Part shown: positions 2,867 to 52,143 of the stretch, piece after piece
Layout: every line of letters starts with the position of its first letter
How positions within the stretch are numbered: position 1 is the stretch's first letter
From: Microbotryum violaceum
Lineage: Eukaryota
Assembly (NCBI GenBank): GCA_001244265.2
Contig: CDLV01000011.1
Span: 434,001-498,000 of the forward strand
DNA: 64,000 bases
Direction of reading: 5' to 3'
Program-made: the position numbers and the translations under genes
The notes under the pieces: generated by a model
Told to the model about the DNA's origin: nothing
The model's database searches: none
What the model saw: the letters and a program-made list of their open reading frames with translations, nothing else

Positions 2867-3315
2867 ATTCGAGGAGGGTGCAATAGAGGTGATGCCGTGT
2901 TGCGGTCGTCAGAGGAGGTCACGGGTCCAGGAACCAGTCAAGTGGGGGTGTTTGGAGCGGATCTATTGAAGTGTTGATGAGTAGATAAGGTACGATGTGT
3001 CGCTTGGATCGTTGAGGGCTTTTCAAGGTGTTGCCACGAGATGCGAAGCGTGTGTGTCGGAATGACGGGGGCGTACGGAAGCCAGGTGGGGAACGACCAC
3101 AGCGGTCGCAAGAGCTCGCCCGGCTCTGGCTGCACGTCTCGCTCTCGATCCTCATATTCGTGCAACACACCCTGACAAACGTAATGCATAGCTTGCTCAT
3201 CCCCCATCTTAGTTCCAGAAATTATGACGAACTCTCCCGAGACGACGCGAGCCTTACAGGAACCGTCCAACAAGGAAGTGCAACTCCCAAGTCTATAAAA
3301 AAAAGACATCGTTCT

Positions 3316-5310
<1,995 letters not shown>

Positions 5311-5436: not shown

Positions 5437-6456
5437 ATGGTCTTTTCGGCTTTTGCTGCAAGGATTAACGCGCCCCCGGAGGGGGCGACGGGTCCCTGAA
5501 CCTCTGACGGAGTAACACCGACTGACAGCGTCAGCTAATTTAATCAAGAACGTGCTAGTGTCTGCATTTGCTGCAAGGTATGCGCCTCTAATGTGCATGA
5601 AATACAATCTGTCGTTCTTGGCCGCTAGGCTAAAAGCAAGTCGTAACTAGAACTTGAGAGTTCTAGCTACTCAGAGGCTACTTATGGGGCTGTTCCTGTA
5701 AGGCATCCCCTTTTACGATCATTTATCGCCGTTTTTTGATCGTCTCTCGCTCAGAACGCCGACTTGTCGAGCTACGTCTCCTCTTCTTCCTTTCGATCTG
5801 GAAGCTTGCCGAGAAATATCTTTATTTTCCTAGTCGGTCGACAGATTCACAGGGTTCGCCGGCGCCGATTCTCGTCGAATCCTTTGGAACCGATCAGCGA
5901 AAGGGCACTCGAAGAGCTCGGCGTCAATTCAGGAGTGCAAGGCTCGCCTTGTGTCTCTGCAAATTACCCAAGGGGGATTTCGCGGGCATGATTGGTTCTG
6001 ACTCCGGGTCAATGAGTCCTGCGCTACTGGCCTAGCCAGTTTGCTTAACTGCATTTCCTCCGACTTTTCCAGAGATTTCTGGGTACTAGGATATAGCGCG
6101 CGGTCCATTTCATTTTGAAAAGGCTCGTTGGCGGTCGCCTGGCGGCGCTCTTGGCAGCTTGGCCTCTTATAGTGCGCGTAGCGCAGAAAAATTTCTGAGC
6201 ATTGAAGAGCTCGTAGAGTAGTCTTGAAAAATTATTCAACACTAGGCGGCCCTCATTTTTGGACATTTTCAGTCAGAATCCGGGAAAAAGGTTGGTCATT
6301 TTGCCTCGAAAAGGACCGTTTTTAGAGGGCCGCCTATGGCTGTGCTTTCGGGGGTCCTGCCTAGCACAGCTATAGCATCCACGGGGGAGAAAGGGTCCGT
6401 GCGCGCGAGCCTGAAGCGGCGCGTCAAATCCTTGCAGCAAAAGCCGAAAAGACTGT
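5437..6456. mobile_element. ~1.02 kb non-autonomous TIR element (Tc1/mariner-pogo-like MITE)
   Basis: ~38-bp terminal inverted repeats (5437-5474 and 6418-6456) with a perfect 27-bp core GTCTTTTCGGCTTTTGCTGCAAGGATT. TA at both flanks (5435-5436, 6457-6458). No convincing ORF inside. Confidence 0.75.
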
Positions 6457-6457
6457 T

Positions 6458-9400
6458 AGTTTCACTCGTTGGAAACCTTACTTGTAAAGTTCCGTACTCT
6501 TTTGCTAGATTGCTGTGGTGAGAATTACAGTATATATTACATAGACAAAAATGACAACTCGGGTAAATGGCTCTGATGAAGCGGAATGAGTGGCGGGGCG
6601 CCACAATGAACCTCTTCTAGCCCAAGGACCTGTTAAGTGATCAAGGAACCAAACTGGTCATGTTAGCTTGGCAATCTCCTGTGGGTGCGATAGACTGGCG
6701 GCTTGAGAATGCGATTGAGCTCCTCACCAAGTTGAAGCCAGTTCAGAAAACGATTTGAATCTGTTGCAGTGAATGGGAGATGCAGTGGACAGGGCAGCGG
6801 TTGGGGGCGCACAGTGACAAGATGCGATGATACCTGCTCATCAGCTTGCGCCCACATCAAGGATCGAGCTTCGAGGTTTCGAGGGACCCACGCATCAGTG
6901 TTCGCGCAATCGATGGCGCTACTCTCTTCCACTGGCAGAGAGATCGTTGTTCCTTCCACCCCTCTGATAAAAACGGCTGTGGGTCAACAGGGGGCTCATT
7001 AACATTTCCCAAAGCCGAAACTGTAGACTGTGAACTTTTCTCGGTCACAGTCAGACCGAACCGACAGACGTACGGACTTTCCCAAACCCACTGGTAATGG
7101 TGATAACTTGATAGTCGGTTTCTGGGGGTGCCGGATGGGAAGACGAGATTCAGCGAATTTGGACTGTAGCGTTTGTCCCGAGCCGAGCCTCGGCACGGTC
7201 ACGCACTCCCGATAAGAATGCTTTCCACCAGCGCATTCGTCGTGTAGTCAGCCACCTTCGCCAAATTGGTGACGCCATACACGAACTCGGGATGACCTTG
7301 AGTCAGCCCAGTGACGACGAGTCGGTCGGGGAATTGTCTCAAGGCAGCTGCCTCCAATGTGGGTGAGTCCGTGACGAGGTAATACACGACCCTCTGATCG
7401 TTCCGCGCGTAACGCTCGGCGAGCTTGTCGGCGCAGTCAAAGAACCGTTGGTGACGTTTGACGGTATTCACCGTATCTATCCCGGAATTCGTCTAGAAAC
7501 CCCCGGGACATCGAGGGCCAAAAAGGAGGGTTGATGGCTTGGGTCAGAATCTTCATGATGAAATGAGGCCAACTCATTACGGCTATCATTTCTCATCGCT
7601 CAGCAAAGCGCTGCTGTGAATAATGCCGAGCCGGGTCTCGCGGTAGACATTCCATGCAGGCTCACCATAGAGCTGTCTCCTGTCCGAATCTGAATTGCGA
7701 TGGAGAACACAGTAGGAAGACTGAACACTGAATCGTATTCAGTAATGAAGCGCATCGATTCGCGCTTGGGCCGGAAGAGGAAGTCGGCCATGCAGGAGTA
7801 GGCGGATGTCCGATCGAACCCCCGTTCCAGCAATGCAGGCTTCACCGCGGAGTAGTCGAAAGAAGTTATGACTCCTCCTCGATTCGTCGAGACCTGTAGA
7901 ATAAAAGTTTTGACGTTGTTTTGATCAGATCCCGTTGAGATGCACGCGAAGGAAGGTCGAGGCGCATTGGAGCGGCATTAAAGTGACGAGCGAGATGCAA
8001 GAGATCACCCCTCCGCAAGCTTACCTGGAGCCAAGGCGGATCGTCCCGCTTCTCAGCGAAAAGTTCTACGCTCAAGTAGTACTCCATATTCGACATCGGA
8101 GGAGCAACCATCTTGAGCAAATCGACGCTATTGATGGTGACCAACTGCGTCTCAAGCACGGATAGACCAGGATGAATCGAGCGTTTCGATATGGGCATGT
8201 ATGGCTGTGCCCAGTCGATCCGGACGGCGTCGAAGAATACTTCGAAAGGCAATACGTCCCAGGTGATGAGTAGTGCTCGGTTGGTGAGAATGGCGTAGAG
8301 AAGCGAAGTGAATATACCCAGCAGTCTATCGAGGTGAGTACGACACTCGAACGAAACGGCGTATCAGCGCTGCGGCTTCTGATGGAGTTGAGTACAAGTA
8401 ACAATCACGCACCGGTCCGAATTGCCGCCGCAAGCGTAGCCTTTCCGACAGCTGAATTCGAGGACCTTGGTGGGACGAGCTCCAGTCACGATCTCGTGAT
8501 GTAGCTTCGCATAATCGGCCATCCATGACGTGTTGCGGCATTGTGAGTGTGGGCGGCCGGTCTGCCATTCGTCACGCAGCGACTCCCACCTGGAAAGGCA
8601 CAAAAGAGGAAGTTCTCACCCTCAATCAAAACCGCCGCCGCTCGGTGCTCTGGAGACGTATCAGAGTCAAACCCACTTTTTACGCGACCCTTTTATATAG
8701 CTCCCTGGTCCTGCACCCGTTCGAACCATCGCGGGCCCTTCGCGGATCCGTGCTGGAACTGGCGAGCTCTGCGATAACCCGACGGGCGCGCCGGTCTGTG
8801 AAAGGGGCCTCGTCGACAGGAGCCATTCTCTGATAGAAACCTCTTCCTGCACTCGAAGGAATGGAAGCGCAGGGGCCGAAGAAAAGGAAACAGGGTCAAC
8901 AACGATGTTCAGGTTCAAGAGACCTGATCACAGCCAGCGACGCGGGCACGGCGACCAGTGCCAAACCTTCGGCCTGTGCTCGAGTCTCACCTTCGTGAGC
9001 GCCGTGACCATCCGAGTGAGACTCTCATGAGGTTCCTGGAACTCCCGCTTGTAGTTCCTCCACATTTCAGCCTCTCCAGACCAATCGAGGCCTTGAGCTT
9101 GCTCAACACCGGACCCAGCCTCGCCCGACAACTCCCATTCGTGCAGGCGCGACAAGACGGTCGCCACGTCGCGGTCTCGGCGCACAACCAGAATGATCGT
9201 CGTCATGACGATGAAGACGATCACCGTCATCACGACGATCACAGGGAGGCCTTTGTGTACATTTCGGATTGTTTTGAAGTGTTGTCTAACGGGACTTGTG
9301 TACGACGTCATCCCTCTCTTGCCAGATCGCAAGTAGGGCGGTTGGAATCGGTCCTCGATAGCTTGCGAGGCGTCCTCCTCACCCTTGTGATCCACGTCCA

Positions 9401-9589
9401 GGTCAAGGTCGACGTCGTACCGACTATCATCTCGATCTTCAACCCTCAGCAGAGGAACGACCACCGCATCATTCGAAAGGGTCATGTGGTCTCGGAGAAG
9501 CGAGTGGGTGTTCGCCGTTCGGCCAGTGTCGTGAACTCGAAAGGGGCAGTAATGCGGGGCCCTTCCTTTAAACTCTCGGCGCGCAAACT
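6458..9589. repeat. Direct segmental duplication, copy A (~3.13 kb)
   Basis: Colinear with 11518-14649 from AGTTTCACT to GCGCAAACT, at an offset of about 5060 bp. Confidence 0.97.
6617..9485 (-). CDS. Putative type II membrane fucosyltransferase-like glycosyltransferase (GT11/GT23/GT37 superfamily), copy A
   Basis: N-terminal TM segment LPVIVVMTVIVFIVMTTIILVV; CGGNSDR|LLGIFTSLLYAILTNRA; motif I-like IQIRTGD; motif II-like YYLVTDS; motif III-like TDYQVITITSGFGK; ends ELASTW|SLG*. Many GT-AG introns; the splice pattern of the 5' exons is uncertain. Confidence 0.72.
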
Positions 9590-9944
9590 GTTGAATGTGG
9601 ACCGGAGGGCTTTAGACGTTCCGAGTAGCTACCGCTGGGAGCTACGGTTGGGTGCGACGACGTGGCAAGAGTTGCGACGGACGGTCCAAACGGAGAAGTC
9701 GCGAGGCGGCACGTGCGCGGTCTGACGAGACGTACGCGGTGCGGCTGGACGATCTGTTCTCTACCGAAGATTAGCAGCTTGGCTTATATTGGGAAGCGGT
9801 GGATATGATTGCAACTAACCTGTGTTCTACCAAAGAGCAGCAGTCTGGCCAATGTTGGGAAGCGGTAGAGAAAGGAAGAGGGGCGCAGGGGCGCGCGAGT
9901 CTGACTCGGTTTAAAGAAGGGAAGCGCGCGAGAGCAGCCCCTGA

Positions 9945-10186
9945 AGGACCCGGGAAAGCTCAGCCGAAGGTGCGTCTCGAAAAACCCCGTTTTTAGGCCG
10001 ATTTGTACACGGAATATCCCATTATAAGGGGTGTACGTATTCCGGCTCAAGACCAGATTATCGGGTTGTGTTGGAAAAATTACTGTACCGTGAAAAATCA
10101 TGTCATGTAGCATATCACAAGGCATAATGGGGCCCGTAAAGTACAAATCTCCGAGACGCACATTGGGCTGAGCTTTCCCGGGTCCT
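9945..10186. repeat. Inverted repeat / fold-back remnant in the spacer between the two gene copies
   Basis: 9945-9979 pairs with 10152-10186 (35 bp, 2 mismatches); inner GATTTGTAC/GTACAAATC pair at ~10000 and ~10141. Confidence 0.75.
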
Positions 10187-10948
10187 GCTGATCCTGCCCC
10201 TGAAAGCCCCGCCGGAGGCGCATTTTTCTTTTTGACACTTTGAGGACCCAGAATCCTGAAAATTGTCGAGGCGCATTGCCAAAAAGTGACATTTTGGAAC
10301 CAAGAACACGTTTTCCCACTAAAACGCCTTTGCAGATTTTGACTATTTCCCGTGGATCGACGTAATTTTGGCCGACCTTGAGCGGCCTTCGGCATGACTT
10401 TGGTCACCTCGGGCAGACATAAAAAGTACGTCTCAACAGACGCGCGCGCAGCGCCCTCCCACGCGCCTTCCAATCCACAATCACAACGGATTGCAACCTT
10501 GCTATTCCAGGTAGCAGATCAGGCCCAGGTTGCGCCCAACTCCCTGCTTCGAGTCGATTCTGTGTACACACAACACTCTCACAGCTGCTAGATTGGCATT
10601 ACTTCCTTCATCTTTTTCTCGCATCTTTCGGGTGTCGTCAGAGTCACATGTCCGAAGCGTCGCGCGCCGGGACTTCGATCCTCGCCTCTGATCCAAAACT
10701 CGTTTAGCAGATGAATGCAACGCTCCAGAACAAGGGTGGCCGACCCCGCATTGGAACCCGACCAATCGACATGACCAGCCCACGTGCACGTGGCACCTCC
10801 TAGATGTCCTCGACTACGTCTACACAGAAGAAAGACTTGGGCCAGCGGGAACCCGATATCATTGACCAATCTCCCTCAGTGACGCACTCCAATCAAATCT
10901 CAATGACGCTTGAGGGCTGCTCCGACGATGTTGACTCGAACGCCGACC

Positions 10949-11227
10949 GAAATACCCAGGCGTCTGGGTAATACCCGACGGCCTGGTATTTCCAAGTGAC
11001 GGCTGGAATTACCACGCGCTTGGGTAAAATCAGCGCGCGCGTGGAAATAACACCCTGCGCCCTGGAAATACCCAGGCGCGTGGTAAAACCAGGACCGTGG
11101 TAAAACCAGGCGCCCTGGAAATACCAGGCTGTCGGGTATTACCCAAGCGCGCTTTTGTAAATACCAGACGAGACCTCGGGTATTCCCCTCCGAGGGTGGA
11201 ATTCCCCGCTCTCTACGGCCCTCAGTG
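10949..11227 (-). mobile_element. Truncated solo left end of the CACTA-like element, inverted
   Basis: 279 bp reverse complement of 14880-15158 (one mismatch seen), ending in GGCCCTCAGTG, with a dense array of GGWWWWWCC subterminal motifs. Confidence 0.85.
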
Positions 11228-11517
11228 TTCGGGGGTTAAACGCGTGCGCGTAGTAGTTTGTAATTACACTTACACCATTTACTCGCGGCATTATGTATGG
11301 ATACATCTCGAGTCTCACTGATTCCGAGTCCAAACTGAAAGGATCAAACGGTGTAATTCGCAGGCGAAGAAAGACTACTAAAACGACTAAGGTCAAGAGA
11401 CGTTGCGGCGTCGCGCGCTAAGGCAAGCGTGACGCCGCTGAGGTGGGCTTGACGTCGTCGTGAGGCGTAGGCGGAGCGACGCCTTACAGTATTCTTACCC
11501 TTCAATTATGCGCCATC

Positions 11518-14500
11518 AGTTTCACTGGTTGGAAACCTTACTGGTAAAGTTCCGTAGTCTTTCTCTAGATTGCTGTGGTGAGGATTGTAGTACAGGTTCC
11601 ATACAGATTTAAAAAAGAGGTAAATGGCTCTGATGAAGCGGAAGGGAATGAGGGGCGGGGCGCCACAGTGAACCTCTTCTAGCCCAAGGACCTGTTAAGT
11701 GATCAAGGAACCAAACTGGTCATGTTAGCTTGGCAATCTCCTGTGGGTGCGATAGACTGGCGGCTTGAGAATGCGATTGAGCTCCTCACCAAGTTGAAGC
11801 CAGTTCAGAAAACGATTTGAATCTGTTGCAGTGAATGGGAGATGAAGTGGACAGGGCAGCGGTTGGGGGTGCACAGTGACAAGATGCGATGATACCTGCT
11901 CATCAGCTTGCGCCCACATCAAGGATCGAGCTTCGAGGTTTCGAGGGACCCACGCATCAGTGTTCGCGCAATCGATGGCGCTACGCCGTGCCCTCGGCAG
12001 AGAGATCGTTGTTCCTTCCACGCCTCTGATAAGAACGGCTGTGGATCAGACAGAGGGCTCACTAGCCCTTAGCCAATACTTCAGACCGTGAACTTTTCTC
12101 GGTCACAGTAGGACCGAATCGACAGACGTACGGACTTTCCCAAACCCACTGGTATCGGTGATAATTTGATAGTCGGTTTCTGGGGGTGCCAGATGGGAAG
12201 ACGAGATTCAGCGATTTTAGACTGGAGCGTTGGGTCCCGAGCCGAGCCTTGGCACGGTCACGCACTCCCGATAAGAATGCTTTCCACCAGCGCATTCGTC
12301 GTGTAGTCAGCCACCTTCGCCAAATTGGTGACGTTATACACGAACTCGGGATGACCTTGGGTCAGCCCAGTGACGACGAGTCGGTCGGGGAATTGTCTCA
12401 AGGCAGCTGCCTCCAATGTGGGTGAGTCCGTGACGAGGTAATACACGACCTTCTGATCGTCCCGTGCGTAACGCTCGGCGAGCTTGGCGGCGCAGTCAAA
12501 GAACTGTCGGTGACGTTTGACGGTATGGATCTTATCTTTCCTGGAATTGGTCTAGAACCCCCCGGGACATCGAGGGCCAAAAAGGAGGATTGATGGCTTG
12601 GGTCAGAATCTTCATGATGAAATGAGGCCAGCTCATTACGGCTATCATTTCTCATCGCTCAGCAAAGCGTTGCTGCGAATAATGCCGAGCCGGGTCTCGC
12701 GGTAGACATTCCATGCAGGCTCACCATAGAGCTGTCTCCTGTCCGAATCTGAATTGCGATGGAGAACACAGTAGGAAGACTGAACACTGAATCGTATTCA
12801 GTAATGAAGCGCATCGATTCGCGCTTGGGCCGGAAGAGGAAGTCGGCCATGCAGGAGTAGGCGGATGTCCGATCGAACCCCCGTTCCAGCAATGCAGGCT
12901 TCACCGCGGAGTAGTCGAAAGAAGTTATGACTCCTCCTCGATTCGTCGAGACCTGTAGAATAAATGTTTTGACGTTGTTTTGATCAGAGCCCGTTGAGAT
13001 GCACGCGAAGGAAGGTCGAGGCGCATTGGAGCGGCATTAAAGTGACGAGCGAGATGCAAGAGATCACCCCTCCGCAAGCTTACCTGGAGCCAAGGCGGAT
13101 CGTCCCGCTTCTCAGCGAAAAGTTCTACGCTCAAGTAGTACTCCATATTCGACATTGGAGGAGCAACTATCTTCTGCACCTCGGCGTTTATGATGGTAAA
13201 CCATTGCCTCTTAAGCACGGGTAGACCAGGGTGAATCGAGCGTTTCGATATGGGCATGTATGGCTGTGCCCAGTCGATCCGGACGGCGTCGAAGAATACT
13301 TCGAAAGGCAATACTTCCCAGGTGATGAGTAGTGCTCGGTTGGTGAGAATGGCGTAGAGAAGCGAAGTGAATATACCCAGCAGTCTATCGAGGTGAGTAC
13401 GACACTCGAACGAAACGGCGTATCAGCGCTGCGGCTTCTGATGGAGTTGAGTACAAAGTAACAATCACGCACCGGTCCGAAATGCCGCCGCAACCGTGGC
13501 GTTCCCGACAGATGCATTCGAGGACCTTGGTGGGACGAGCTCCAGTCACGATCTCGTGATGTAGCTTCGCATAATCGGCCATCCATGACGTGTTGCGGCA
13601 TTGTGAGTGTGGGCGGCCGGTCTGCCATTCGTCACGCAGCGACTCCCACCTGGAAAGGCACAAAAGAGGAAGTTCTCACCCTCAATCAAAACCGCCGCCG
13701 CTCGGTGCTCTGGAGACGTATCAGAGTCAAACCCACTTTTTACGCGACCCTTTTATATAGCTCCCTGGTCCTGCACCCGTTCGAACCATCGCGGGCCCTT
13801 CGCGGATCCGTGCTGGAACTGGCGAGCTCTGCGATAACCCGACGGGCGCGCCGGTCTGTGAAAGGGGCCTCGTCGACAGGAGCCATTCTCTGATAGAAAC
13901 CTCTTCCTGCACTCGAAGGAATGGAAGCGCAGGGGCCGAAGAAAAGGAAACAGGGTCAACAACGATGTTCAGGTTCAAGAGACCTGATCACAGCCAGCGA
14001 CGCGGGCACGGCGACCAGTGCCAAACCTTCGGCCTGTGCTCGAGTCTCACCTTCGTGAGCGCCGTGACCATCCGAGTGAGACTCTCATGAGGTTCCTGGA
14101 ACTCCCGCTTGTAGTTCCTCCACATTTCAGCCTCTCCAGACCAATCGAGGCCTTGAGCTTGCTCAACACCGGACCCAGCCTCGCCCGACAACTCCCATTC
14201 GTGCAGGCGCGACAAGACGGTCGCCACGTCGCGGTCTCGGCGCACAGCCAGAATGATCGTCGTCATGACGATGAAGACGATCACCGTCATCACGACGATC
14301 ACAGGGAGGCCTTTGTGTACATTTCGGATTGTTTTGAAGTGTTGTCCAACGGGACTTGTGTACGACGTCATCCCTCCCTTGCCAGATCGCAAGTAGGGCG
14401 GTTGGAATCGGTCCTCGATAGCTTGCGAGGCGTCCTCCTCACCCTTGTAATCCACGTCCAGGTCAAGGTCGACGTCGTACCGACTATCATCTCGATCTTC

Positions 14501-14649
14501 AACCCTCAGCAGAGGAACGACCACCGCATCATTCGAAAGGGTCATGTGGTCTCGGAGAAGCGAGTGGGTGTTCGCCGTTCGGCCAGTGTCGTGAACTCGA
14601 AAGGGGCAGTAATGCGGGGCCCTTCCTTCAAACTCTCGGCGCGCAAACT
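11518..14649. repeat. Direct segmental duplication, copy B (~3.13 kb)
   Basis: Colinear with 6458-9589. Confidence 0.97.
11679..14545 (-). CDS. Putative fucosyltransferase-like glycosyltransferase, copy B
   Basis: Same exon-intron layout and motifs as copy A (CGGISDR, IQIRTGD, YYLVTDS, TDYQIITDTSGFGK, WSLG*). No frameshift or stop seen in the exons compared. Confidence 0.72.
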
Positions 14650-15028
14650 ACTTATTAATGGTCTTTTCAGCTTTTGTCCCGGGGACAGGATCGGCGATAG
14701 GTACCGATAGGTTCCTGCCACGTCTGTTCGGATCGGGGCGGGTGTCATCACCGATCAGATGTACCTGAGCAGCTGTGTTCAGGACGCGGGAGTATTTACC
14801 TCAGGGCAATGCTGGCGGATGTACCTACCCTTTCCCGCCTCACAAACACAATATCACTCACCGAGCGGCGCAGATCTTACACTGAGGGCCGTAGAGAGCG
14901 GGGAATTCCACCCTCGGAGGGGAATACCCGAGGTCTCGTCTGGTATTTACAAAAGCGCGCTTGGGTAATACCCGACAGCCTGGTATTTCCAGGGCGCCTG
15001 GTTTTACCACGGTCCTGGTTTTACCACG

Positions 15029-15272
15029 CGCCTGGGTATTTCCAGGGCGCAGGGTGTTATTTCCACGCGCGCGCTGATTTTACCCAAGCGCGTGGTAATT
15101 CCAGCCGTCACTTGGAAATACCAGGCCGTCGAGTATTACCCAGACGCCTGGGTATTTCTAGGGCGCAGGGTGTTATTTCCACGCGCGCGCTGATTTTACC
15201 CAAGCGCGTGGTAATTCCAGCCGTCACTTGGAAATACCAGGCCGTCGAGTATTACCCAGACGCCTGGGTATT
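15029..15272. repeat. 116-bp tandem duplication in the left subterminal array
   Basis: Units start CGCCTGGGTATT at 15029, 15145 and 15261 (period 116). Confidence 0.9.
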
Positions 15273-15860
15273 ACCAGGTCGCAAGGTGATATCGCCCCGG
15301 CCGAATGAGATTCTGCCCAGGCGCGTGGTAATACCAGCCGGCACCATTATTACCCTCGCCCGGTGGTTTTCCCAGCCAGGTATGGTATTGTCCACTTATG
15401 TATTGGATCTAGATCCTAGTCATACCGCTACTCTCAGCTGTCTCAGCATGTGCCAAATGACTTCTAGCCTAGCAGATGGAAAACAGCTGGGAATGGATTA
15501 CAAGTTCAAGAAATTGGGCCGAGCTTCGTCCTCCAATCGGTCACAGATATACTCGCGAGGCTCCTCTCGAGTCTCGACCCACCCTCCGATAGATGCGACC
15601 AGCTGAGCCTAAGATGCAGCGCAGATCTATAATCTCGATCGCTCCCAGAGTTCCTTGACCTCGAGTGAAAAACAGGTTTTGGTGCCTCTGCGCACTGACA
15701 ACAAAAGCAGCCTTTCTTTTTTGCCGCCTTTGCGCTGGCTTGGCCACCGGAGTCCGCTCGATAGCGTCGACGGCTTCCAATCGACTTAGACTAAGAGACC
15801 TGACTTTCCTGCCAGGAAAGTCTGTGGAGTGAGAGGCACAAATTAGCGTTTGTACGTGAG

Positions 15861-15893
15861 TCGTCGTCGTCGTCGTCGTCGTCGACGTCGTCG
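15861..15893. repeat. (CGT)n / (GAC)n microsatellite
   Basis: TCGTCGTCG run; reads poly-Asp on the minus strand. Confidence 0.8.
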
Positions 15894-16979
15894 AATGGGA
15901 GCGAGCTGGAGCTGGAGCGGTCCTCGTATTCCAGGTCAGGAGACACCATTCCCCAATCAAATGCCGCGTCAAACTGTTGTGTCTCGCGAAAATCCTCTTC
16001 ATCCAATCCTAGCGCTTGGTCCTCACTTGACCCCATTGATCCCCGACCGAAGAAGCTCGCTCGGACCCGTGATCTCCTTGAGGAGAGTAGGGACCCTTGG
16101 GACTGGTGGGCACTCCATATTCCGCTTCATTTGTGGCTGATTGTGGTGGCGAGCGACTTGCAAACCAACCAGGAGTTGGTAAAGGGGGCTGGAACGATTG
16201 GGCCTCAGGAGCAAGCAACGTTGGAGGTTCCGATGGCTGCCGCGAGAACTCGAGGATAGCAGTTGCGTCGGCTCTGGAAGAGTCAACAGATTGTAGGCGT
16301 TTGTGGCGGTAGAACTAGTGTCGCTCTTGGTACCATTGCATCGTTGCACAACGAACAATGGCATAGGCGAGAAGATTGGTTGCGTGTCATGGTGGCGCAA
16401 TCGAATGGTTAATTACGGTAAATAGTGGATCTAAGCAACGTGCCGCGTCTAAAAATATATATATATAAATTACTGTGAGACGTGAGACTCAAGAGCAACG
16501 AACGACGCTAAGTCCGGCAGGCCATCCGGGACATTAGGGCTACAGTAATGCGCAATACGAGCAGCAATTAGGCAGATTTGATTATGTGCGCTGAAGAATG
16601 GCGCCATGCGTCCGCGCGCTTCTTTCCTTCTTTCGCCTTCGATCCACTTGTGCCCACGTCGAAGCTCAACCCTCCCCGCCTACGTCTTCCTACCATGACA
16701 CGAACATTGTCGACCACGGCAAGACGTACAACAAGGATGGACAAGTCGAACGAACCACCGCATGAATGACGTCCACGTGTGTACAGAAAGCTGAAATTTT
16801 CGCGGTCTGCGTCTGCACCGCCACAGTTGAGGGAATTTGCTGACGTGTTCTTTTTCAACCGCGCCGCCGTCCTTCACCATCGGCCCACTGCGGCTACCTG
16901 TCTTCTTGTTTCTTCCAGGCAGAAAATACGTTGAAAAGACAAGGGTTCTATGAGCCTGCGCGAGTATACTATAATTGGG

Positions 16980-18026
16980 TTCGCGTGAGTACCGGCGGCT
17001 CAACGATCGGGGCGCGACGCCATCTCGTCGATCTGACTCCTCAGTGCTCACCATCTGTGTGATGTCCTTCGACCAGTCGGTTGTACGGGATGCACTAGTA
17101 AAGTCAGGAATCACCACACCTGACCCCATCAACCTTTATGGTCGGCATGTGGACTCCAGACTACCACACGCCTAAGGAGTTCAACCTCAAGGACGCGTTC
17201 AGGCTCATTCAAGCCAAAACGCAAAGCAACACTACTGTGTGGGGATGTCTTGGACCTGCAAAACAACAAGATATCGTCAAATATGTGAGTTGCGCGGAAT
17301 GTACGGAACGTGCGCTTGCTCGGGCACTCACTCATCCTCTTTCAGATTCGTGAGCGCACGGCTTTCTTAGGGGTCACATCGGGCGACTGGCTCTATGAAG
17401 AATTTGTTATTGATGTGTTGGCGAATGTCCTGAGCCGCGTATAAACTGCAGTACGACCGTGAGGCCTGTCGGTTGGCGGGGATCATGGGACGGCTTTCCA
17501 GGGCGGACATCACAAGATTGCGCAACGAGCTAGGCGTAGGATCTGCTCTAAAGGTTAGTCACTACTCTCGATTGAACAAGAGGCCCGGGTCAGTCAAAAT
17601 CGACGAAGGAGGCGAACGCTAAACAATCTTCTCGCATTAGCCAGAAGACCATCACCAGGCGGGTCCGCCACAAGATTGCGCAACGAGCTAGCGTAGGATC
17701 GCTCTGAAGGTTAGTCACTATTCTCGATTGAACAAGAGGCCCGGGTCAGTTAAAATCGACGAAGGGAGGCAAACGCTAAACAATCTTCTCGCATCAGCCA
17801 GAACACCATCACCAGGCGGGTCCGCCGCAGAGAAGAAAGCGAGGAAGAGCAGTCTCGGGTAGAGGAAGAGGAGGAAGAATAATCAGAGCCGACTAAAGGG
17901 TATAAGAAACGGGCAAGAGGAGCGGCAGCCGGAGCTTCGGGCGGTTTAGATCTTGATCAATCTGACAATCCAGACAAATGGGAGGAGCCTGTGACGGACG
18001 TGGACACTCAGTTTGCTGCTTTGTAG
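16980..18026 (+). pseudogene. Degenerate intron-containing gene inside the CACTA-like element (possible accessory ORF)
   Basis: Protein-like pieces (...WGCLGPAKQQDIVKY|IRERTAFLGVTSGDWLYEEFVIDVLANVL..., LQYDREACRLAGIMGRLSRADITRLRNELG) joined by GT-AG introns but broken by frameshifts and stops. Boundaries approximate. Confidence 0.45.
17511..17825. repeat. ~158-bp tandem duplication
   Basis: 17511-17668 and 17669-17825 both run CACAAGATTG...GGGTCCGC, with a few substitutions and indels. Confidence 0.92.
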
Positions 18027-18085
18027 TGTACCTATATCATAATACAGGAAAAAACCCTGCATTGAAAATCTGCAATTCGGATATG

Positions 18086-18166
18086 AGCATTAGTAAGTTC
18101 GAATACAAGTATTAGTAAACTCGAGTGTAAGCATTAGTAAATTCGAATCTGAGCAGAGCATTAGTA
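18086..18166. repeat. 22-bp degenerate tandem repeat (~3.5 units)
   Basis: AGCATTAGTAAGTTCGAATACA / AGTATTAGTAAACTCGAGTGTA / AGCATTAGTAAATTCGAATCTG / AGCATTAGTA. Confidence 0.75.
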
Positions 18167-19232
18167 CTACAAAGGTGACACCCATTACAAAAAACCTGCG
18201 CTCGGTCGTGCTCCGCACAAGAGCCCCTATTGAGGCTTTCCGGGTGGAAATACCAGCTGAGAAGGTGAATACCCAACCGACAGAAATACCAGCGGCTTGG
18301 GTAATACCCCTCGTGAAGTGGTAATACCCGCGCGTCTGGAAATACCAGTGGGTCGGGTATTACCACCTCACGAGGGTATTACCCAAGCCCCTGGTATTTC
18401 CAGGCGCCTGGTATTTCCAGCCGCGCGCCTGGAATTACCAGGCCAAAAAGGCCCTCGGTGTTATTTCTCCGAGTTTTCGCCCACGTTCGCCACCTTCATG
18501 CCAGACGCGTTCGATATGCTGTCCATAAGATATCACACTCTGAAAGCTCGTCCCCGGGGACAACATTAGGTGTATGACAGGTCCGAATCGTACGCCGTGT
18601 TGGACCTCCGATTACCTGCCGGCAAGCGGCGGCGAAAAGGAAAAAAAAGCGATCGCACCAGTTTGTTCATGAAATGGATCGCCGAGAGCTTCTCGATCAC
18701 CCTCTGTGCTCTGTGGCTCTCTGTGGCGCCGGCACCGGCGGCAGCCGCCGGTCATTTGCCGACCGCCATCCTCTCAACCTAACAACCTACATTCTCGAGT
18801 CAGCTCACAGTCCCGCCCAGCAGCAATCGCCGAGTGAAAGGCACGTGTACTGTCCCTCAGCTTCAGATCTGTCCATTCTCAGTCAAACACTTGGACATGT
18901 TGGTGACGCTCCAGCACCGGCGACCGCTCCCGCCACCACTGTATTATCGGATGACGTCGTACCCAAGCGAGCTTCTGCTACATCACCCCTCGAGGATCGC
19001 TTTCCGACCATGAGCACGTAGAACCAGTGCATCAAGGCCCCTTCTGCCTGAAGCGGCCCACACACTTTGACGCGTTCCACACTTGTTCGGAATGGCGCGC
19101 TGACTCGTGCTTGCAATTGTCTCACTCCCACTATCGCAGCCTATCGCAGCGACCGAGGATCGAGCGAACGGAAGCGCACCCCCGGACTCGGCTCTGTTCG
19201 ATCTGAACCGCCTCCCTCAACCCGAATAGGCC

Positions 19233-33917: not shown

Positions 33918-34400
33918 ATTTTGTCAGGATGAAAACATATAGATAGATGTGTTTGTTTTCTAAAGGGGATTGTGGTTGAAAGCAGGGCACGCTCTGTGAT
34001 GATTTCTAAATAAATGGGAGCGAAACATTCTTGCGTGCCAGGCAGCAACTTGAGAATCGGGGTAAACACAGCATGGCTGACGAAGGACACTTGGACCGAG
34101 TCAATGAAATGGTCGCCAAAACGGTATGCGAAGCGGTGATGCGGAGCTCCGTCGGACCTTGCTCGGAGATCGGCGCAGTTTGGCGCGACGGCAAACGCCG
34201 TCCGTCGCCCGACGCGCGACAAATGAACGCGAGCCGGAACGTGAAAAAAGGCGTGACTGATCGACCGAGTCGAGTGCGAACCGAACCGAGCCGACCAAAG
34301 CTCCCATCGCTCTCGGGAACTCCTCCTTCGTTCCCTTTCCCGCTCACCCCCAAATTCTTCCCCCGCTCCTCCTCGCCACTGCCCTCTTCCACACTACAAC

Positions 34401-36198
34401 AGTGAGTCATTCCAGGCACGCGAGGTAGTCGTGTATGGCCAGTCGTTGATCAGCTGCCTCGGACGACGCCCTTTGCCAGTGTCGCCCATTTCCATCAACG
34501 GCTCCGACGATGCTCCTCGACGAGCGAGCGTGTCGGTACGACCGATCCAGATCCACACCGGCTCGCCCCCCTTGAACTCTGCTTCCGTCACGTCCCCCCT
34601 CTTTGCGACCTCGCCCCCAAACTCGACCCTGTTTGGATCGCCGCCGGCCGGTTCGGCTCATTCGGGCGGACGTTCGTTGACGGCTTCTCACAGCTTCTCG
34701 GCTCGCGTTGGCAAGGCCTTGGCCCCGTTCCCCATCAACGAGTCGCCAGTCAAGATCCTCCTGCTTGAGAACGTCAACACGGCTGCCGTGGACCTGCTCA
34801 AGGCGCAGGGTTACCACGTCGACGAGATCAAGTCCGCGCTCGGCGAACAGGAACTCATCACCAAGCTTATGGAGGGCGGCTACCAGGCCGTCGGTATCCG
34901 TTCCAAGACCAAGGTCACCGCCAAGGTCATCTCCGAGGTCCCCTCTGTAAGTTTTACAAGGCCAGGACCGTGGTCACTTCCCCGGGGTTCCAGCGCTTTG
35001 CCAAGCTCTTGCCTGCGAAAGGCTTCTGATGACTCATCGCCGGCCACCTTCGCAAACACGCGTGTGTCTCGCTTATGCTCGATGTACCTCCCTACAGTTG
35101 CTTGTCATCGGCTGCTTCTGCATCGGCACAAATCAAGTCGATCTCATCGCCGCTGCCAAGGCGGGTATCGCCGTCTTCAACTCGCCCTTTTCCAACTCGC
35201 GCTCGGTCGCCGAGCTCGTCATTTCCGAGGTTATTGCGCTCTCGCGTCAATTGTGCGATCGCTCGAGGGAGATGAGGGAGGGCATCTGGAACAAGGTCTC
35301 CAAGGGATGCTGGGAGATCCGCGGCAAATGCCTCGGCGTGAGTGTTCAAGCCAGCACTATTTGATTGCGTGCCGGCGTTGACCAAGAACGTGCACGCCTA
35401 CAGATCGTCGGGTACGGTCACATTGGAAGTCAATTGTCGGTCTTGGCTGAGGCGATGGGAATGTCGGTTCTCTACTACGACGTGATGCCCATCATGCCCC
35501 TCGGCTCGGCGAAGCAGGTCGATACGCTCGATGACCTGCTCGGCGCGGTCGACTTCCTCTCGCTGCACGTGCCCGAGCTGCCCGAAACGACAAACCTCAT
35601 CTCGGACGCGCAGCTCAATCTGATGAAGGACGGCGCATACTTGCTCAACAACGCCCGAGGCAAAGTCGTCGACATCCCCGCTCTCGTCCGCGCCCTTCAG
35701 TCCGGCAAGCTCGCGGGTGCTGCGATCGATGTGTTCCCGTCGGAGCCGGCAGCGAACGGTCCCAACTTTGGCGATGCGCTCAACACATGGGCGACCGAGC
35801 TGCGCGCGTGCCCGAACCTCATCCTAACGCCGCACATTGGTGGTTCGACCGAGGAGGCGCAATCGATGATTGGTGCGGAGGTCGGCTCTGCCCTGATCCG
35901 CTACATCAACTACGGCTCGTCGATCGGCGCGGTCAACTTCCCCGAGGTCTCGCTTCGACCCATCTTGTCGGACGGCACCGTTCGCTTGTGCCACGTGCAC
36001 CTGAACCAACCTGGTGTGCTCAAGATTGTCAACTCAATCCTGGGGGAACACAACGTCGAGAAGCAGTTTTCGGATTCTAAGGGCGACACGGCTTACCTCT
36101 TGGCGGATATCTCGCACGTCGGCGAGGCCGAGATCAAGGAGATTTACGAGGCCATCTCGGGTACGAGGAGCAACATTGTCACAAGGATGTTGTTCTAA
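34401..36198 (+). CDS. SER3: D-3-phosphoglycerate dehydrogenase
   Basis: KILLLENV, GIRSKT, IGCFCIGTNQVDL, NSRSVAEL, GYGHIGSQL, LTPHIGGSTEEAQ. Start codon proposed as A|TG across intron 34402-34479. Confidence 0.95.
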
Positions 36199-40897: not shown

Positions 40898-42972
40898 CTA
40901 CACCTTTCGAACCCTGACGCCACTCTGCTTCAAGTGCGATTTGACATCCTCGATGGGCACCTCCTTGCGGTGGAAGATCCCCGCCGCTAAAGCCGCTTCA
41001 GCTCTCGTTTCCCTAAACACTTCTTTGAAATCCTCAGGTTTGCCTGCTCCCGAACTAGCGACGACAGGGATCCCGACGGCGCTTCGGACCAAGTCGACTA
41101 GTCGAAGGTCAAAGCCGGCTTTGGACCCATCGCGATCGACCGAATTGAGTAACAACTCGCCCGCGCCCAAGCGTTCGACCCCTTGCGCGAGTTGGACCAC
41201 GTCGAGGTCCCGCATCTCTCGCCCGCCTCGGACGGTACATTGGTACCAGCAGAACTGCTCGCCCTTCGGTCCGAGGTCGGGTTTGACGGGCGCCGTTGTC
41301 GGTGCCTTGCTCGGCAGCTGAGGCGAAGCAAGATCAACAGCATTTTTCCGGTGAGGTTGAGGAATCTGATCCAAAGAGGTCGCATAGACTCGTTTCGGGT
41401 CGATCGAGACCACGACGGCTTGGTTGCCGTACGCCTTGGAGATGGTCTCGATGCCGGTCTTGCCACTTAGGGGTTCCTCGCCCTTGGCCTCTCGTTCCAG
41501 CAGGTCCTCGACAGCAAAGACGGCATCGGACCCGATCGAGACCTTGTCGGCACCACATCGGAAGTAAGTACCCGCGACTTCCAGAGCGCTTCGTTGCGAT
41601 CCATCAGGATCAACCGTATCGCGAATGCCTCCTCCGATCGTCAGAGGGACAAAGACGGTCTTGGCGGATTGTCGAACGACGTCAAGCATCGGTTGATCGT
41701 GCAATGGACAAGAGCGGAACGAAGTAATATTGAGGAAGGCAATCTCGTCCGCGCCTTCGGCAAAGTATCGCCGGGCCAGATCGACGGGTTTGCCGAGGTT
41801 GCGCACGGCTCGCGAAGGTTTTGGCGGTGGGACATCGGTGGAAGAGGATCCCTCGTCGGCGTTGATGGAGGGTGTGGGCGTCGCTGTTGTTGTCGATTCT
41901 TCTGCTTCCCGTACATCGTATTGATCCCCCTTGGTGACGACGAGATCACCTTGATCGTTCGCTCGGACGTCGAGGCAGGCGACAACACGCTTTGTGAACC
42001 CACGCGCGACGAGTTCCTCCTTCACATCTGCCCTCGGTCGCTTTTGCTGTCCACTCGTGTCGACCATGGCTTCACCTTGGTCCAACCAAGCCCTGAGCAC
42101 ATCCAGTCCGGCTTGCCCACTCTTCTCGGGATGGAACTGGGTGGCGAAAACGTTGCCTTTCTGCACTGACGAGACGTAGACCTCGTCGCCGTACTGCGTC
42201 AAGGTCAACGCCCAGTCCTCAACGTCCGGACCGAATTCAACGCGATACGAGTGAACAAAGTAAAAAGCACTTTCGCCGGACAGACCGAACGCCTCGGCCC
42301 TGTCCGCTCGAAGAGGGATTGCGCCGTTCCATCCCATGCAAGGAACACTCTTGCCTCCTGCGGGAGAGAACTTGCCGACGTGGGCGGGGATAACACCCAG
42401 ACCTTGTTCGGACGAGGACTCAGACGAGGATTGAAAGAGGGCTTGCATGCCGATGCAGATACCCATGTAGGGGCGACCCGAGGCGATGTACTTCTTGAGC
42501 GGTTCGGCGAAGCCCTTGTCACGAAGCGATCGCAGCGCCGAGTCGAACGAGCCTACGCCGGGAAAGAGGATGCGCTGCGGGATAGTATTCGCATCATCAG
42601 CATTTGAGCACATTTCGATCATCGTGGAGCAACCCCCGATCGATGAGAATCGGCCGAGACACGAGCTGATCGACAATGTGAGTGCACGACGACGAGCGGA
42701 GGTGGGTCGACACGCTTCGCAGGGAGTGTACAGCCGACGTATTGAGCTTGGGAGGTCACTCACATCTGCTTTTTCAATATCCTCGACTGTCTCTACCCAT
42801 TTGAAGTCGAATCCGAGCGATCGAACCGAGTTGGCTGCACCGGAAGCACCGGAAGCACCCGAGCCCAGCATCATCGTTAGCTCGTCGAGCATCTCGGAAA
42901 CGGTACACAAAAAGCGTGCGACTCACCCAAAGAGGCAACATTACCAGCACCATAATCGAGGATGTAGAGCAT
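40898..42972 (-). CDS. HIS7: Imidazole glycerol phosphate synthase (fused HisH-HisF)
   Basis: MLYILDYGAGNV, FPGVG, GICIGMQ, FYFVHSY, TQFHPEKSG, ACLDVRAND, ALAAGIFHR. Confidence 0.97.
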
Positions 42973-44437
42973 GATGGACTGGGACCGAGGATGCCGACGG
43001 CGATGAGGAACGACGTAGCGAAAGAACATCCGTAAAGAGCATCCGTCGCGCTTGACTCACAAGACGGTTATCACCCCAGCGCGGTCCGAGCTCAATTTTC
43101 ACCTTCCGATCCTTGCACCCGAGACATGATTTGACTCCAACAGCTGACATGGAGCCGATGTTCTGCCCCACTCGTTGACCAGTCTTTGACTTTGAAGTTC
43201 CCTCCACCAAGAATGAACCCCTATCCCAATCAGAAAATCCCGAGGTTTTGCGAGGCCAGTGACCCGTCTTGCTCCCCATTGCCGTTCAGCTCATTGCTAT
43301 AGAGTGCTGTACTAATCCGGTAAGCAGCACTTACAACACAGAGCGACTTACAACACAGAACAATTCAGTCGTCATCAACGTCCCAAGTCCGGTCAAGTTG
43401 CTACGCGAGCGATATCCGGACTTTCCGCCGTCTATAGACTCGGGCTTGTTCGGGAGTAGTCCCCAAGTCCCACATGTAAAAGGAAAGCGACTAGACCATA
43501 GCTTAGCGGATGGTGAGGCACGGTGTTACAACACGACGGTCAGAACTTGATATCAATCCAAATAGAAAGCTAAGAGGAAGCGCTCTCGGGTTGAACTCGT
43601 TCCAAAATCCCTACGGCGCCATCCACACTCGCGCCCAAACTTCAAAAGCGGCCTTGTCGGGAGCTTGTAGGCTCGTGCTCGTGGAAACTCCAACCCTCAC
43701 TTTCACCGGACATCAAACCTCCTCTGATGCTCTTGCGCTCGTCGAAGCGTCCGTCGTTCAGATGCAGCATCTTTCGAGAGAGCCGTGAAGACCTACCGGA
43801 GCTTGATCCGGTCCCAGATAACGAGGGACACGAGCGTACAAAACCACTCGCGCCCATAAAAGTATACGTGGCGACCCGCAGCTCCGTTAAAGAGGGTCAA
43901 ATACACCGTCAACCGGATCGAAGCGAGCGTACAGTGCAGCTTTCCGCTCGCATGATCTCCTATGGTCAATGTGTAAACTTTGATCTGTTCCAGAAACATC
44001 GTTCCCCGACCGGTGAAAAGGCCCTTGAACAAGGGCGGCTGATGTGAGGGTCACCATCCGAGTCTTGTTCCCAGACAAACATTTTAATCGAGTAGACGAC
44101 CTGGGAACAAAGCAAGGGAAAGCGCATTTCTCGCCGCCGTCTCCTTCGACGAGCAAGTGAGGCTGCACCGAGACAGACAAAGGCTCGAGATGGGCCGCGC
44201 TGACGGTGTGGAGTCAAAGACAGGCCGGGCATTCGTTCCTACATCACAGCAGAAGGAGTAAGCGCATGGTTCTGACTGGTGCCCACGATGCCGGCACGAG
44301 TCCACCATCGCCATCTATCGCTTAGCCACGAACTCCATCACCAAGAGCACCTCGTACTCGTCGACTAGGAGGCGGGACCGGTCGTAGCAAGAGGGGATGC
44401 GGGGCTTCTCGCCTACAACATCGAGACAGCCCCACTT

Positions 44438-44813
44438 GACGCGACACCGCTACGGGCGGCATTGTTCCAAGACTTGGAACAGCAAGTAATACCGGCGGTC
44501 TGCTCCCTCTACCAATCTCTGCGCGCTACACTTCCACGAGGGTGCAAAAAACGGCCGCCGGCTCAGCGAGATGGGGTCAAGTCATTCAATCCAAGCCCTC
44601 TCGTGTACTACTCGAGCAGATCAGGGCTGCAACAGTCGACAGAGGGTCTGCTCAAGTGGTACACGAGAGGGCATGGATTGAATGACTTGACCCCATCTCG
44701 CTGAGCCGGCGGCTGTTTCCTGCACCCTCGTGGAAGTGTAGCGCGCAGAGATTGGTAGGGGGTACTTGCTGTTCCAAGCCTTGCAACAATGGCGCCTGTA
44801 CCGGTGTCGCGTC
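44438..44813. repeat. Long imperfect inverted repeat (fold-back hairpin)
   Basis: 44438-44620 pairs with 44647-44813; 26-nt loop, ~12 mismatches, one ~17-nt bulge. Confidence 0.93.
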
Positions 44814-45447
44814 GTGTCGGTACGATCCGCGTGCTGTATTGGCTGACCGTTCTCCCGTGGTTAGATTGCCTCGTTCTGGGCCCCACCTTGTGCAGTGCAC
44901 TGACCTAGAGTCGGCTACCTATTGGTTCAGGTACGTGCTGAGCTTTTTCTTCTTGCCGCGAGACCGGGTTTTGGAGAACGCTCTACTTCCCTCCCGAGTC
45001 GGTCGAGGACGACCTGGGTCACTTCAGCTTCTACGACGCACACAGCACTCTCTGGGAGAAAAGCCCTCACCCTCTTACTCGTGCAACACTTTGTTGTCCG
45101 TCCTCGGTAAACGCTCGCCGGAATTGAGGGGTTGGTTTTCTTGATCCAAGGGTATCCCCCTGACTACGCTTGGAACCCGGATGCGGAGGCCCTCAAGGGG
45201 ACTTGCACAAAGCTCAAAATGGAGAGGGTGCAGGCGAGACTGCGTCAGTTGCTCAAGCTCGATGAAGTGGACTCGAAAACTTCATGGTTTGCAAAAGCTG
45301 CGAAGCGTGTGGCTGTGTGGTCGGACAGAAATTGCACGCGTCCGGTTCCGAATCAGACGACAGCCCAATCAGGTTCACGAGAGCTTCATCAGGGTTTTCA
45401 GATATCAATTACATGCATGCAATTACACTCTATTCGCTTCGCCATAA

Positions 45448-51661: not shown

Positions 51662-52143
51662 ATAGTTTCTGTGTCTGTAGCATTACCCATTGCATATCGT
51701 CAGTAGAAAACCCCGTACCTCTGTACCCGGAACCGTGTTGTCCTGCAATCGCGCGCCTCGGTGTTGGGCCGGCGAAAAAAGTTCGCCTCTAGCGGTCTCA
51801 GGAACGTTAATAAGGAAGCAAGCTCGGCACATGCATCTCCAGAGCTAAACCTACAACCCGTTTTCGCCTCTTGGCTAAAGTCTGGAACCCCTGACCCGAC
51901 ATACTTTAGCCCATCGATACCTCCCCACCTGATGTAGTGCGTACACCGTGGTCGAACGCGGCAAGCTTCGGCACGGGTCGAGTCCCGAAACGCTTTCTTG
52001 GCCAAGACCGCGCAAACCCCCACATGGTGCGCTCCGTCTGGACGAGTCGTCGCTTTTCTTCCTCCGTCCCTGTCCCCGCCTGCTGAGCTTATCACTACCG
52101 TCCTCCCTTCTAATTCCCTCTCCCGGCCTTCCAACATCACACG

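Follow-up and report, generated by a model that had tools for sequence, protein, structure and literature searches.

Two tandem GT37-like genes of Microbotryum lychnidis-dioicae, homogenised by gene conversion except in short islands that may line the enzyme cleft

Why should two neighbouring genes be almost identical over long stretches and crowd their differences into a few short segments? This question is raised by a window of 64,000 nucleotides (contig CDLV01000011.1, positions 434,001 to 498,000 of the forward strand, GenBank assembly GCA_001244265.2, filed under Microbotryum violaceum), which belongs to Microbotryum lychnidis-dioicae and carries two adjacent genes, copy A (MVLG_05046) and copy B (MVLG_05045). 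An earlier note on this DNA had described them as twin fucosyltransferase-like genes and had read their patches of almost purely non-synonymous divergence as positive selection on acceptor-facing loops around an unchanged donor site. Our analyses reveal concerted evolution, the copies being homogenised by gene conversion everywhere but in short islands. The explanation we favour, at a probability of roughly 0.55, is that selection rejects conversion across loops lining the cleft and thereby keeps two enzyme variants, as in the 'peak of divergence' of opsin genes. The case is real and apparently unreported; the evolutionary pattern itself is already known, and so is the enzyme clan, of which these proteins form an uncharacterised branch in fungi. 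The features concerned are listed here in window coordinates.

6458-9589: duplicated unit, copy A side; its partner is 11518-14649
6617-9485, reverse strand: copy A (MVLG_05046), GT37-like type II membrane protein of 611 residues with an open frame and GT-AG introns; matched by P0006 in the database
Exons of copy A, reverse strand: 9485-8991, 8846-8677, 8589-8413, 8325-8025, 7893-7666, 7492-7207, 7121-7074, 6976-6892, 6760-6728, 6629-6617
11679-14545, reverse strand: copy B (MVLG_05045), 611 residues, open frame, GT-AG introns; P0001 matches its C-terminal half
Exons of copy B, reverse strand: 14545-14051, 13906-13737, 13649-13473, 13384-13084, 12952-12725, 12551-12266, 12179-12132, 12038-11954, 11822-11790, 11691-11679
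8421-8456, reverse strand: patch 1 (codons 267-278; copy B 13481-13516), 7 replacement and 0 silent changes, 5 copy-specific in both species
8097-8174, reverse strand: patch 2 (codons 332-357; copy B 13156-13233), 12 replacement codons, 3 silent
7445-7492, reverse strand: patch 3 (codons 458-473; copy B 12504-12551), 7 replacement, 1 silent
6921-6935, reverse strand: patch 4 (codons 583-587; copy B 11983-11997), 4 replacement, 1 silent; acidic in A, basic in B
6977-7073, reverse strand: intron 7, the only strongly diverged intron (14 differences in 92 aligned positions, plus 2 gaps), flanked by the differing residues 561 and 571/584-587
8456-9186: identical run of 731 bp, a recent conversion tract that abuts patch 1

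Self-comparison of the window found one direct duplication, 6458-9589 versus 11518-14649, at 95.9% identity. Both copies are intact, with 10 exons and 611 open codons each and 93% protein identity, and exon 5 matches Microbotryum proteins at 100%. The genome paper's gene table (PMC4469406) places both, as neighbouring autosomal genes labelled 'hypothetical proteins', on scaffold 63 in a haploid assembly. We found no literature on MVLG_05045 or MVLG_05046, the accessible text of PMC9023891 included, and the supplements of other Microbotryum selection scans may list the genes under other identifiers. The database models P0002, P0005, P0006 and P0007 have 3' ends that are wrong or different; the family's C-terminus, W-S-x-G, requires the 13-bp last exon (6629-6617), as in P0001.

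The pair could in principle be an artefact, either two haplotypes assembled in tandem, as the earlier note itself had considered, or a gene beside its decaying pseudogene. The long runs identical between the copies would fit that, as would the surroundings of copy B, which lacks copy A's farther upstream region because the duplicated unit ends only 104 bp upstream of copy A's ATG, and which has a transposon beginning 335 bp upstream of its own ATG. Such an artefact is nevertheless very improbable, given the read depths, the spliced contigs of both copies and the tabulated expression of copy B. The genes are adjacent on one autosomal scaffold of a second assembly, which is haploid, both frames are open, and M. 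silenes-dioicae also has two copies close together (C012g06983 and g06988). Contigs from four of the 24 listed sequencing runs were compared with the window: in X12 and X15, both of them DNA runs, contigs over the copy-specific junctions stand at single depth (about 113-127 and 22-31, respectively) and the shared stretches at about double that (202-247 and 41-54). Run X19, the kind of which is unrecorded, consists of spliced contigs whose joints fit introns 1-4 exactly; introns 1-3 of copy A are skipped in them, and B-specific contigs (13126-13261 and 11354-11689) occur together with A-type ones, so that both of these intact genes are transcribed in that run.

Contigs give no expression levels. 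Copy B is expressed and regulated in the supplement of the genome paper, with values of 27.6 in late infection, 103.1 in water and 41.5 in rich medium (log2 fold 1.96, FDR (false discovery rate) 6e-4), possibly affected by cross-mapping between the copies; copy A is absent from the expression table as available (PMC4469406). Regulatory divergence between the copies is plausible because the duplication stops 104 bp above the ATG while an A-type spliced contig extends to 9777. Separately, unbranched patch 1 contigs in X12, X15 and X19 were considered as a sign of converted alleles in strains; this was rejected, as such contigs drop short variants, and those of X12 merge intron differences already known to exist.

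The mosaic described in the earlier note is real. A recount bore out the substitution numbers given there, and the alternation of long identical stretches with dense patches goes beyond chance: 47 of the 58 coding-sequence (CDS) differences lie within 10 nt of another, as against a maximum of 45 in 10,000 shuffles, and the copies share an uninterrupted stretch of 731 bp where the null gave at most 353. Over the whole CDS, 42 codons carry replacements and 8 are silent. Exon 5, which encodes IQIRTGD, is the same in both copies and the intron after it has 5 mismatches, as claimed, although its length is 173 bp and not 167 bp. The cores of IQIRTGD, LVTDS and SGFGK are unchanged as well, but residues 558 and 561, just ahead of S-G-F-G, differ between the copies, as does residue 278 within a fourth conserved motif. 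A fifth variable loop lies at codons 528-533 (about 7265-7282), with one A/B change (530) and, relative to M. saponariae, five changes and an indel.

Silent sites identify conversion as the source of the mosaic. Synonymous divergence is 7.5 of 43 sites (17%) inside the four patches and 3 of 413 (0.7%) outside them (p=4e-6), and seven introns differ at 9 of 851 positions, the diverged noncoding sequence being intron 6 (6/85), intron 7 (14/92) and the 3' flank (16/152). Patch 1 is a 34-bp all-replacement island between the 731-bp identical run and an intron with one indel.

Three of the four patches recur as islands in a second species, in a comparison of annotated proteins from one assembly per species. 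Across the four copies, two in M. lychnidis-dioicae and two in M. silenes-dioicae, there are 47 variable sites, of which 25 are copy-specific in both sister species, two (137 and 549) are species-specific and common to both copies, the signature of conversion, and 20 show other patterns, including patch 3 and 488/491. Patches 1, 2 and 4 are copy-specific islands shared across species with homogenised flanks, and the clearest single example is patch 1, which has converted DNA on both sides and arose before the two species separated. In the protein tree the window's A groups with A of M. silenes-dioicae and B with B, and M. saponariae stands outside; the duplication therefore predates the split of the sister species, which has been dated to 420 ky (PMC6581054), and on that tree would be younger than the split from M. 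saponariae, in which one close protein was found and a second copy is possible. The earlier note had missed both the role of conversion in producing the patches and the fast change of these segments between species.

What the islands might do depends on the enzyme. A homologue search gave 36 matches among 5853 candidates; 34 of them are named and come from Microbotryum, Rhodotorula, Rhodosporidiobolus, Sporobolomyces, Pseudohyphozyma, Leucosporidium and Meredithblackwellia, many with PF03254, and M. lychnidis-dioicae itself has at least six family members. All eight Microbotryum proteins scanned match PF03254, one of them above the Pfam gathering score of 23.4 bits (P0002, 28.9; P0007, 23.1; P0006, which is copy A, 22.2; others 15.8-19.1), and Pfam scans of nine single window exons matched no relevant family. 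The family profile matches Arabidopsis FUT4 (E 2.6e-13) and FUT1 (E 1.7e-11), as against E 0.5 for FUT8. A model of P0002 (pLDDT 77.5) shows a membrane helix at the N-terminus and a pair of Rossmann domains, and Foldseek places it with the FUT1-type GT-B fold (E 2.7e-10). In the VIA comparison its nearest structures are FUT1 (Z 19.1, rmsd 3.9, 340 aligned), FUT8 (18.5) and NodZ (18.0), then the POFUTs; the top 43 rows are all FUT1, FUT8, NodZ or POFUT (Z 19.1-11.4), the next standing at Z 8.0. Residues R451, G453, D454, S563, G564 and G566 (P0002 numbers minus 8) are invariant in 41 homologues, and the invariant Arg aligns to the FUT1 residue mutated in 5KX6. As predicted from profile and model, the proteins resemble inverting GDP-fucose transferases of the GT-B clan that comprises GT11, GT23, GT37, GT65 and GT68, and the fucosyltransferase assignment made earlier is borne out by the Pfam, profile and fold matches. 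A single-sequence AlphaFold model of P0007 was discarded (pLDDT 33).

Within that clan GT37 is the likely family, the sequence profile favouring it and the structural Z scores tying it, within 1, with GT23; the activity expected of a GT37 member would be alpha-1,2 transfer of fucose from GDP-Fuc onto Gal or Araf. The GT23 enzymes FUT8 and NodZ are structural neighbours level with FUT1, but the profile match to FUT8 is weak, and Pfam detected no SH3 domain in the scanned family proteins. With the GT37 (PF03254, XG_FTase) enzymes FUT1 (5KOE, 5KOR, 5KWK) and FUT4 (9NQH) of Arabidopsis the fungal proteins share the GT-B fold and type II topology, and the N-domain motif, the invariant Arg and the S-x-F-G motif of FUT1 align; however, identity to FUT1/FUT4 is only 15-18%, and FUT1 D300 aligns to an invariant Asn-Arg-Gly of the fungal proteins. 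A search for short relatives gave only three distant matches (46-53%). Two further proteins, P0060 and P0061, are unnamed and distant (27-28%) and have the motifs and the C-terminus of the family, which may therefore not be confined to these fungi.

The patches were placed by alignment and the secondary structure of the P0002 model only. In GT-B enzymes the C-terminal ends of the strands face the cleft. Patch 1 takes in the tail of the first N-domain strand and the loop that leads to the conserved G-G-x-S-D-R motif (aligned to SGLGNR of AtFUT1), residue 304 follows strand 2, and patch 2 covers the third N-domain strand with the loop behind it, in part an insertion specific to the clade. Two positions ahead of the Ser of S-G-F-G lies residue 561, and patch 4 is the loop after the last strand. 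In the alignment these positions reach H271, W481 and R501 of FUT1, probable acceptor contacts. Patch 3 is a loop and helix beginning 10 residues past the invariant Arg of IQIRTGD; the equivalent Arg of FUT8 is Arg365, after which a loop (365-378) forms donor and acceptor sites (PMC7033129). Patch 4 lies at the start of the region that in FUT1 leads into an extra C-terminal part, said to bind acceptor (PMC9201394). The windows that follow the nine core strands make up a third of the residues and contain 22 of 38 A/B changes (naive p=7e-4; 22/122 versus 16/249 elsewhere), a bias absent from the family's paralogues (13/584 versus 36/1233). These placements are suggestive of patches mainly on the predicted cleft side, probably near the active site. 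To that extent the earlier proposal stands; its clean division into a fixed donor site and variable acceptor loops does not, because patch 1 and residue 561 touch donor-binding motifs.

Under the reading we prefer, a fast-evolving GT37-like gene would have been duplicated in tandem and the copies then homogenised by conversion outside the islands. The products would work, as Golgi-type inverting GDP-fucose transferases, on glycans that the fungus secretes or builds into its own wall. Selection would remove conversion events that overwrite a few cleft-lining loops, linked silent sites being carried along, and the two enzymes would keep different acceptor preferences or activities. The genes for the red and green opsins of humans, which have a 'peak of divergence' under gene conversion, resemble our pair in having copy-specific exonic islands shared between species and homogenised introns (PMC3924837). 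The present pair differs in having four to five islands and not one, in the loss of one island in the sister species, in an intron that is also an island and in a functional difference between the copies that is a prediction.

Counts of replacement and silent changes do not carry this reading. Nei-Gojobori counting on the two DNA sequences gave 47.5 non-synonymous and 10.5 synonymous differences over the whole CDS. Since three quarters of random coding changes are replacements, 'almost purely non-synonymous' is no proof of positive selection, and a dN/dS above 1 was not established. Ratios of 0.5 or less, as expected under ordinary purifying selection, are rejected (p=5e-4), and the p value for an excess falls to 0.05-0.02 if a transition bias of 2-4 is assumed. 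Two sequences do not suffice to decide whether the A/B differences are free of constraint or favoured.

Several results weigh against selection having kept the islands apart. The ratio is 1.52, with a 95% confidence interval (CI) of about 0.7-3.5 and a one-sided p=0.11 (1.4-1.7, with a CI of about 0.7-3.7, over the range of estimates), replacements making up 82% of changes where 75% are expected under neutrality (p=0.11); the pooled patches give 1.54 (p=0.18) and patch 2 alone 0.82 (pN 0.22 and pS 0.26 counting multi-hit codons). The patches were delimited from the A/B differences themselves, and their pN (0.25) exceeds the divergence of intron 7 (0.15) only at p=0.065. The cleft-side bias has p=0.06-0.14 under a shift null that preserves clustering, and patch columns are more variable across the family as a whole (entropy 2.14 versus 1.72, p=0.002). 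In M. silenes-dioicae patch 3 has been overwritten, its B copy carrying the A state there and at 488/491. Two further points of this kind come from rates of change, for which we compared 371 catalytic-domain columns (codons 223-597, four splice-variant columns dropped) with five single-copy paralogue pairs, four lychnidis-saponariae and one silenes-saponariae: outside the patches the lineage is about threefold faster than the paralogues (27/324 versus 42/1609), as relaxation would give, and the fully non-circular test, which counts states found only in M. saponariae at sites where A equals B, gave 4/17 in the patches versus 27/316 outside (p=0.06).

These points make relaxed constraint with stochastic, patchy conversion a serious rival, according to which the loops of a partly redundant gene, variable beforehand, would have diverged neutrally once constraint was lost, and their higher density of mismatches would now cause conversion tracts to fail and leave neutral islands behind. 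It would account for a ratio compatible with 1, for intron 7 and the 3' flank being islands too, for patch columns that vary across the family, and for a pN outside the patches (1.1%) at least as high as pS (0.7%). The locus also sits among high-copy repeats, and codon 549 (about 7219 in copy A and 12278 in copy B) encodes Ile in both copies, where 89% of 38 homologues have a Trp and the proteins of the two other species a Met. Nevertheless, both frames are intact, and of 57 columns that at least 85% of 38 other homologues conserve, both copies keep 56. Homogenisation reached seven of nine introns but not exonic islands of similar divergence, and mismatch is no absolute barrier to conversion, as the conversion of patch 3 in one species shows. 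Where family columns are equally variable, the copies differ at 14 of 21 within the patches and at 3 of 82 elsewhere, a comparison that is partly circular. We regard this rival as possible, if on the unlikely side.

The rates themselves are better accommodated by selection for distinct loops in one respect, as the patch columns are conserved in the five paralogue pairs (7 of 208 differ, no higher a rate than the 42 of 1609 in their other columns). Against M. saponariae copy A differs at 56 and copy B at 54 of the 371 residues, where the pairs differ at 13, 6, 2, 14 and 14, which makes this lineage 4- to 28-fold faster than its siblings in the family. Within the patches 28 and 25 of 51 residues, respectively, differ from M. 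saponariae, and at 13 of 47 patch sites, compared with 27 of 324 elsewhere, that species has a state that none of the four copies carries (p=4e-4). Changes between A and B are also more radical than those between paralogues (mean BLOSUM62 -0.32 versus 0.57, p=0.012). Of the changed sites, 12 are more basic in copy B and four are more acidic (two-sided p=0.08, post hoc), which might weakly hint that its loops would suit a more acidic acceptor.

A further explanation, modular shuffling under balancing selection, has conversion making chimeric enzymes (for example B1-B2-A3-B4) that vary the surface glycans facing a host or an antagonist. The B protein of M. silenes-dioicae is such a chimera, and the single M. 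saponariae protein has third states at 6 of the 25 copy-specific sites. It is one chimera only, in one assembly, where polishing could have homogenised repeats, and we consider shuffling distinctly unlikely. The Sec1/Fut2/Fut1 genes of leporids, which we take to belong to GT11, invite the comparison. These alpha-1,2-fucosyltransferases are tandem paralogues under conversion that adds glycan diversity, with rabbit Sec1/Fut2 as a precedent for shuffling, and they differ from our pair in enzyme family and kingdom and in having a viral driver and a dominant-negative mechanism shown (PMC4398370). A reading that we find rather doubtful likens the pair to blood-group fucosyltransferase loci: conversion would swap active-site loop modules between the two enzymes, and recurrent positive or balancing selection exerted by host plants or hostile microbes would renew the fucosylated surface of host-specialised anther smuts. 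A role in host, mycoparasite or self recognition is conjecture by analogy. Nothing in the two genes or in the 10 nearby open reading frames scanned with Pfam indicates a dedicated diversification machine such as a diversity-generating retroelement (DGR) or cassette switching, with its recombinase or reverse transcriptase, silent cassettes or targeted mutation; both copies are full, expressed genes.

Should the retention of two loop variants by selection be confirmed, adaptive evolution would be seen, as it rarely is, in an enzyme that builds glycans inside the cells of a plant-parasitic fungus, as opposed to a secreted effector. Two 93% identical enzymes that differ in a few loops are in any case a natural experiment on acceptor choice by fucosyltransferases. 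Microbotryum walls contain fucose, and the CAZy list of the genome paper, in its available part, names one candidate fucosyltransferase, GT10 MVLG_05795, and neither MVLG_05045 nor MVLG_05046 (PMC4469406). With at least six members in M. lychnidis-dioicae and a spread across relatives, the family supplies candidate enzymes for that wall fucose, from a family described as plant-specific (PMC7900004).

Both intergenic stretches are full of high-copy repeats, and two related elements bracket copy B.

14880-18460, forward strand: degenerate transposon of 3.58 kb, CACTA-like, with 11-bp terminal inverted repeats, TTA on both sides and subterminal repeats
10949-11227, reverse strand: inverted 280-bp copy of the element's left end, 99.6% identical to 14880-15158

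The larger element, whose class we take to be CACTA, has internal tandem duplications of 116 bp and 157 bp, and Pfam scans of 10 open reading frames (ORFs) near or in it gave no match reaching the cut-off. Copy B is bracketed by an inverted repeat, since the inverted left-end copy sits downstream and the element upstream, and these outward-facing ends could let the 3.65-kb B segment invert. The transposon was rejected as the cause of the duplication, the inverted arms being, at 99.6% identity, far younger than the islands. A stretch of about 1 kb with 36-bp inverted ends (5440-6453) adjoins the 3' edge of copy A, and the same 16-bp end motif recurs at 14661-14676, 12 bp past the upstream duplication edge of copy B (3 matches, 0 expected); this second repeat family may mark the duplication breakpoints. 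In the spacer between the copies (9690-11500) high-copy repeats reach a contig depth of more than 20 times single copy, and a 46-bp inverted repeat lies at 9934-10197.

Farther out, the ORFs at 3000-5000, 34257-36198, 40898-42922, 52114-53561 and 57817-58626 look like housekeeping genes, presumably, from their translations, for adenylosuccinate synthetase, phosphoglycerate dehydrogenase, imidazole-glycerol-phosphate synthase, an aldehyde dehydrogenase and a chaperonin subunit. An imperfect palindrome of about 390 bp occupies 44431-44820, and part of a coding region nearby recurs as a diverged 108-bp duplicate (43868-43975 and 46617-46724).

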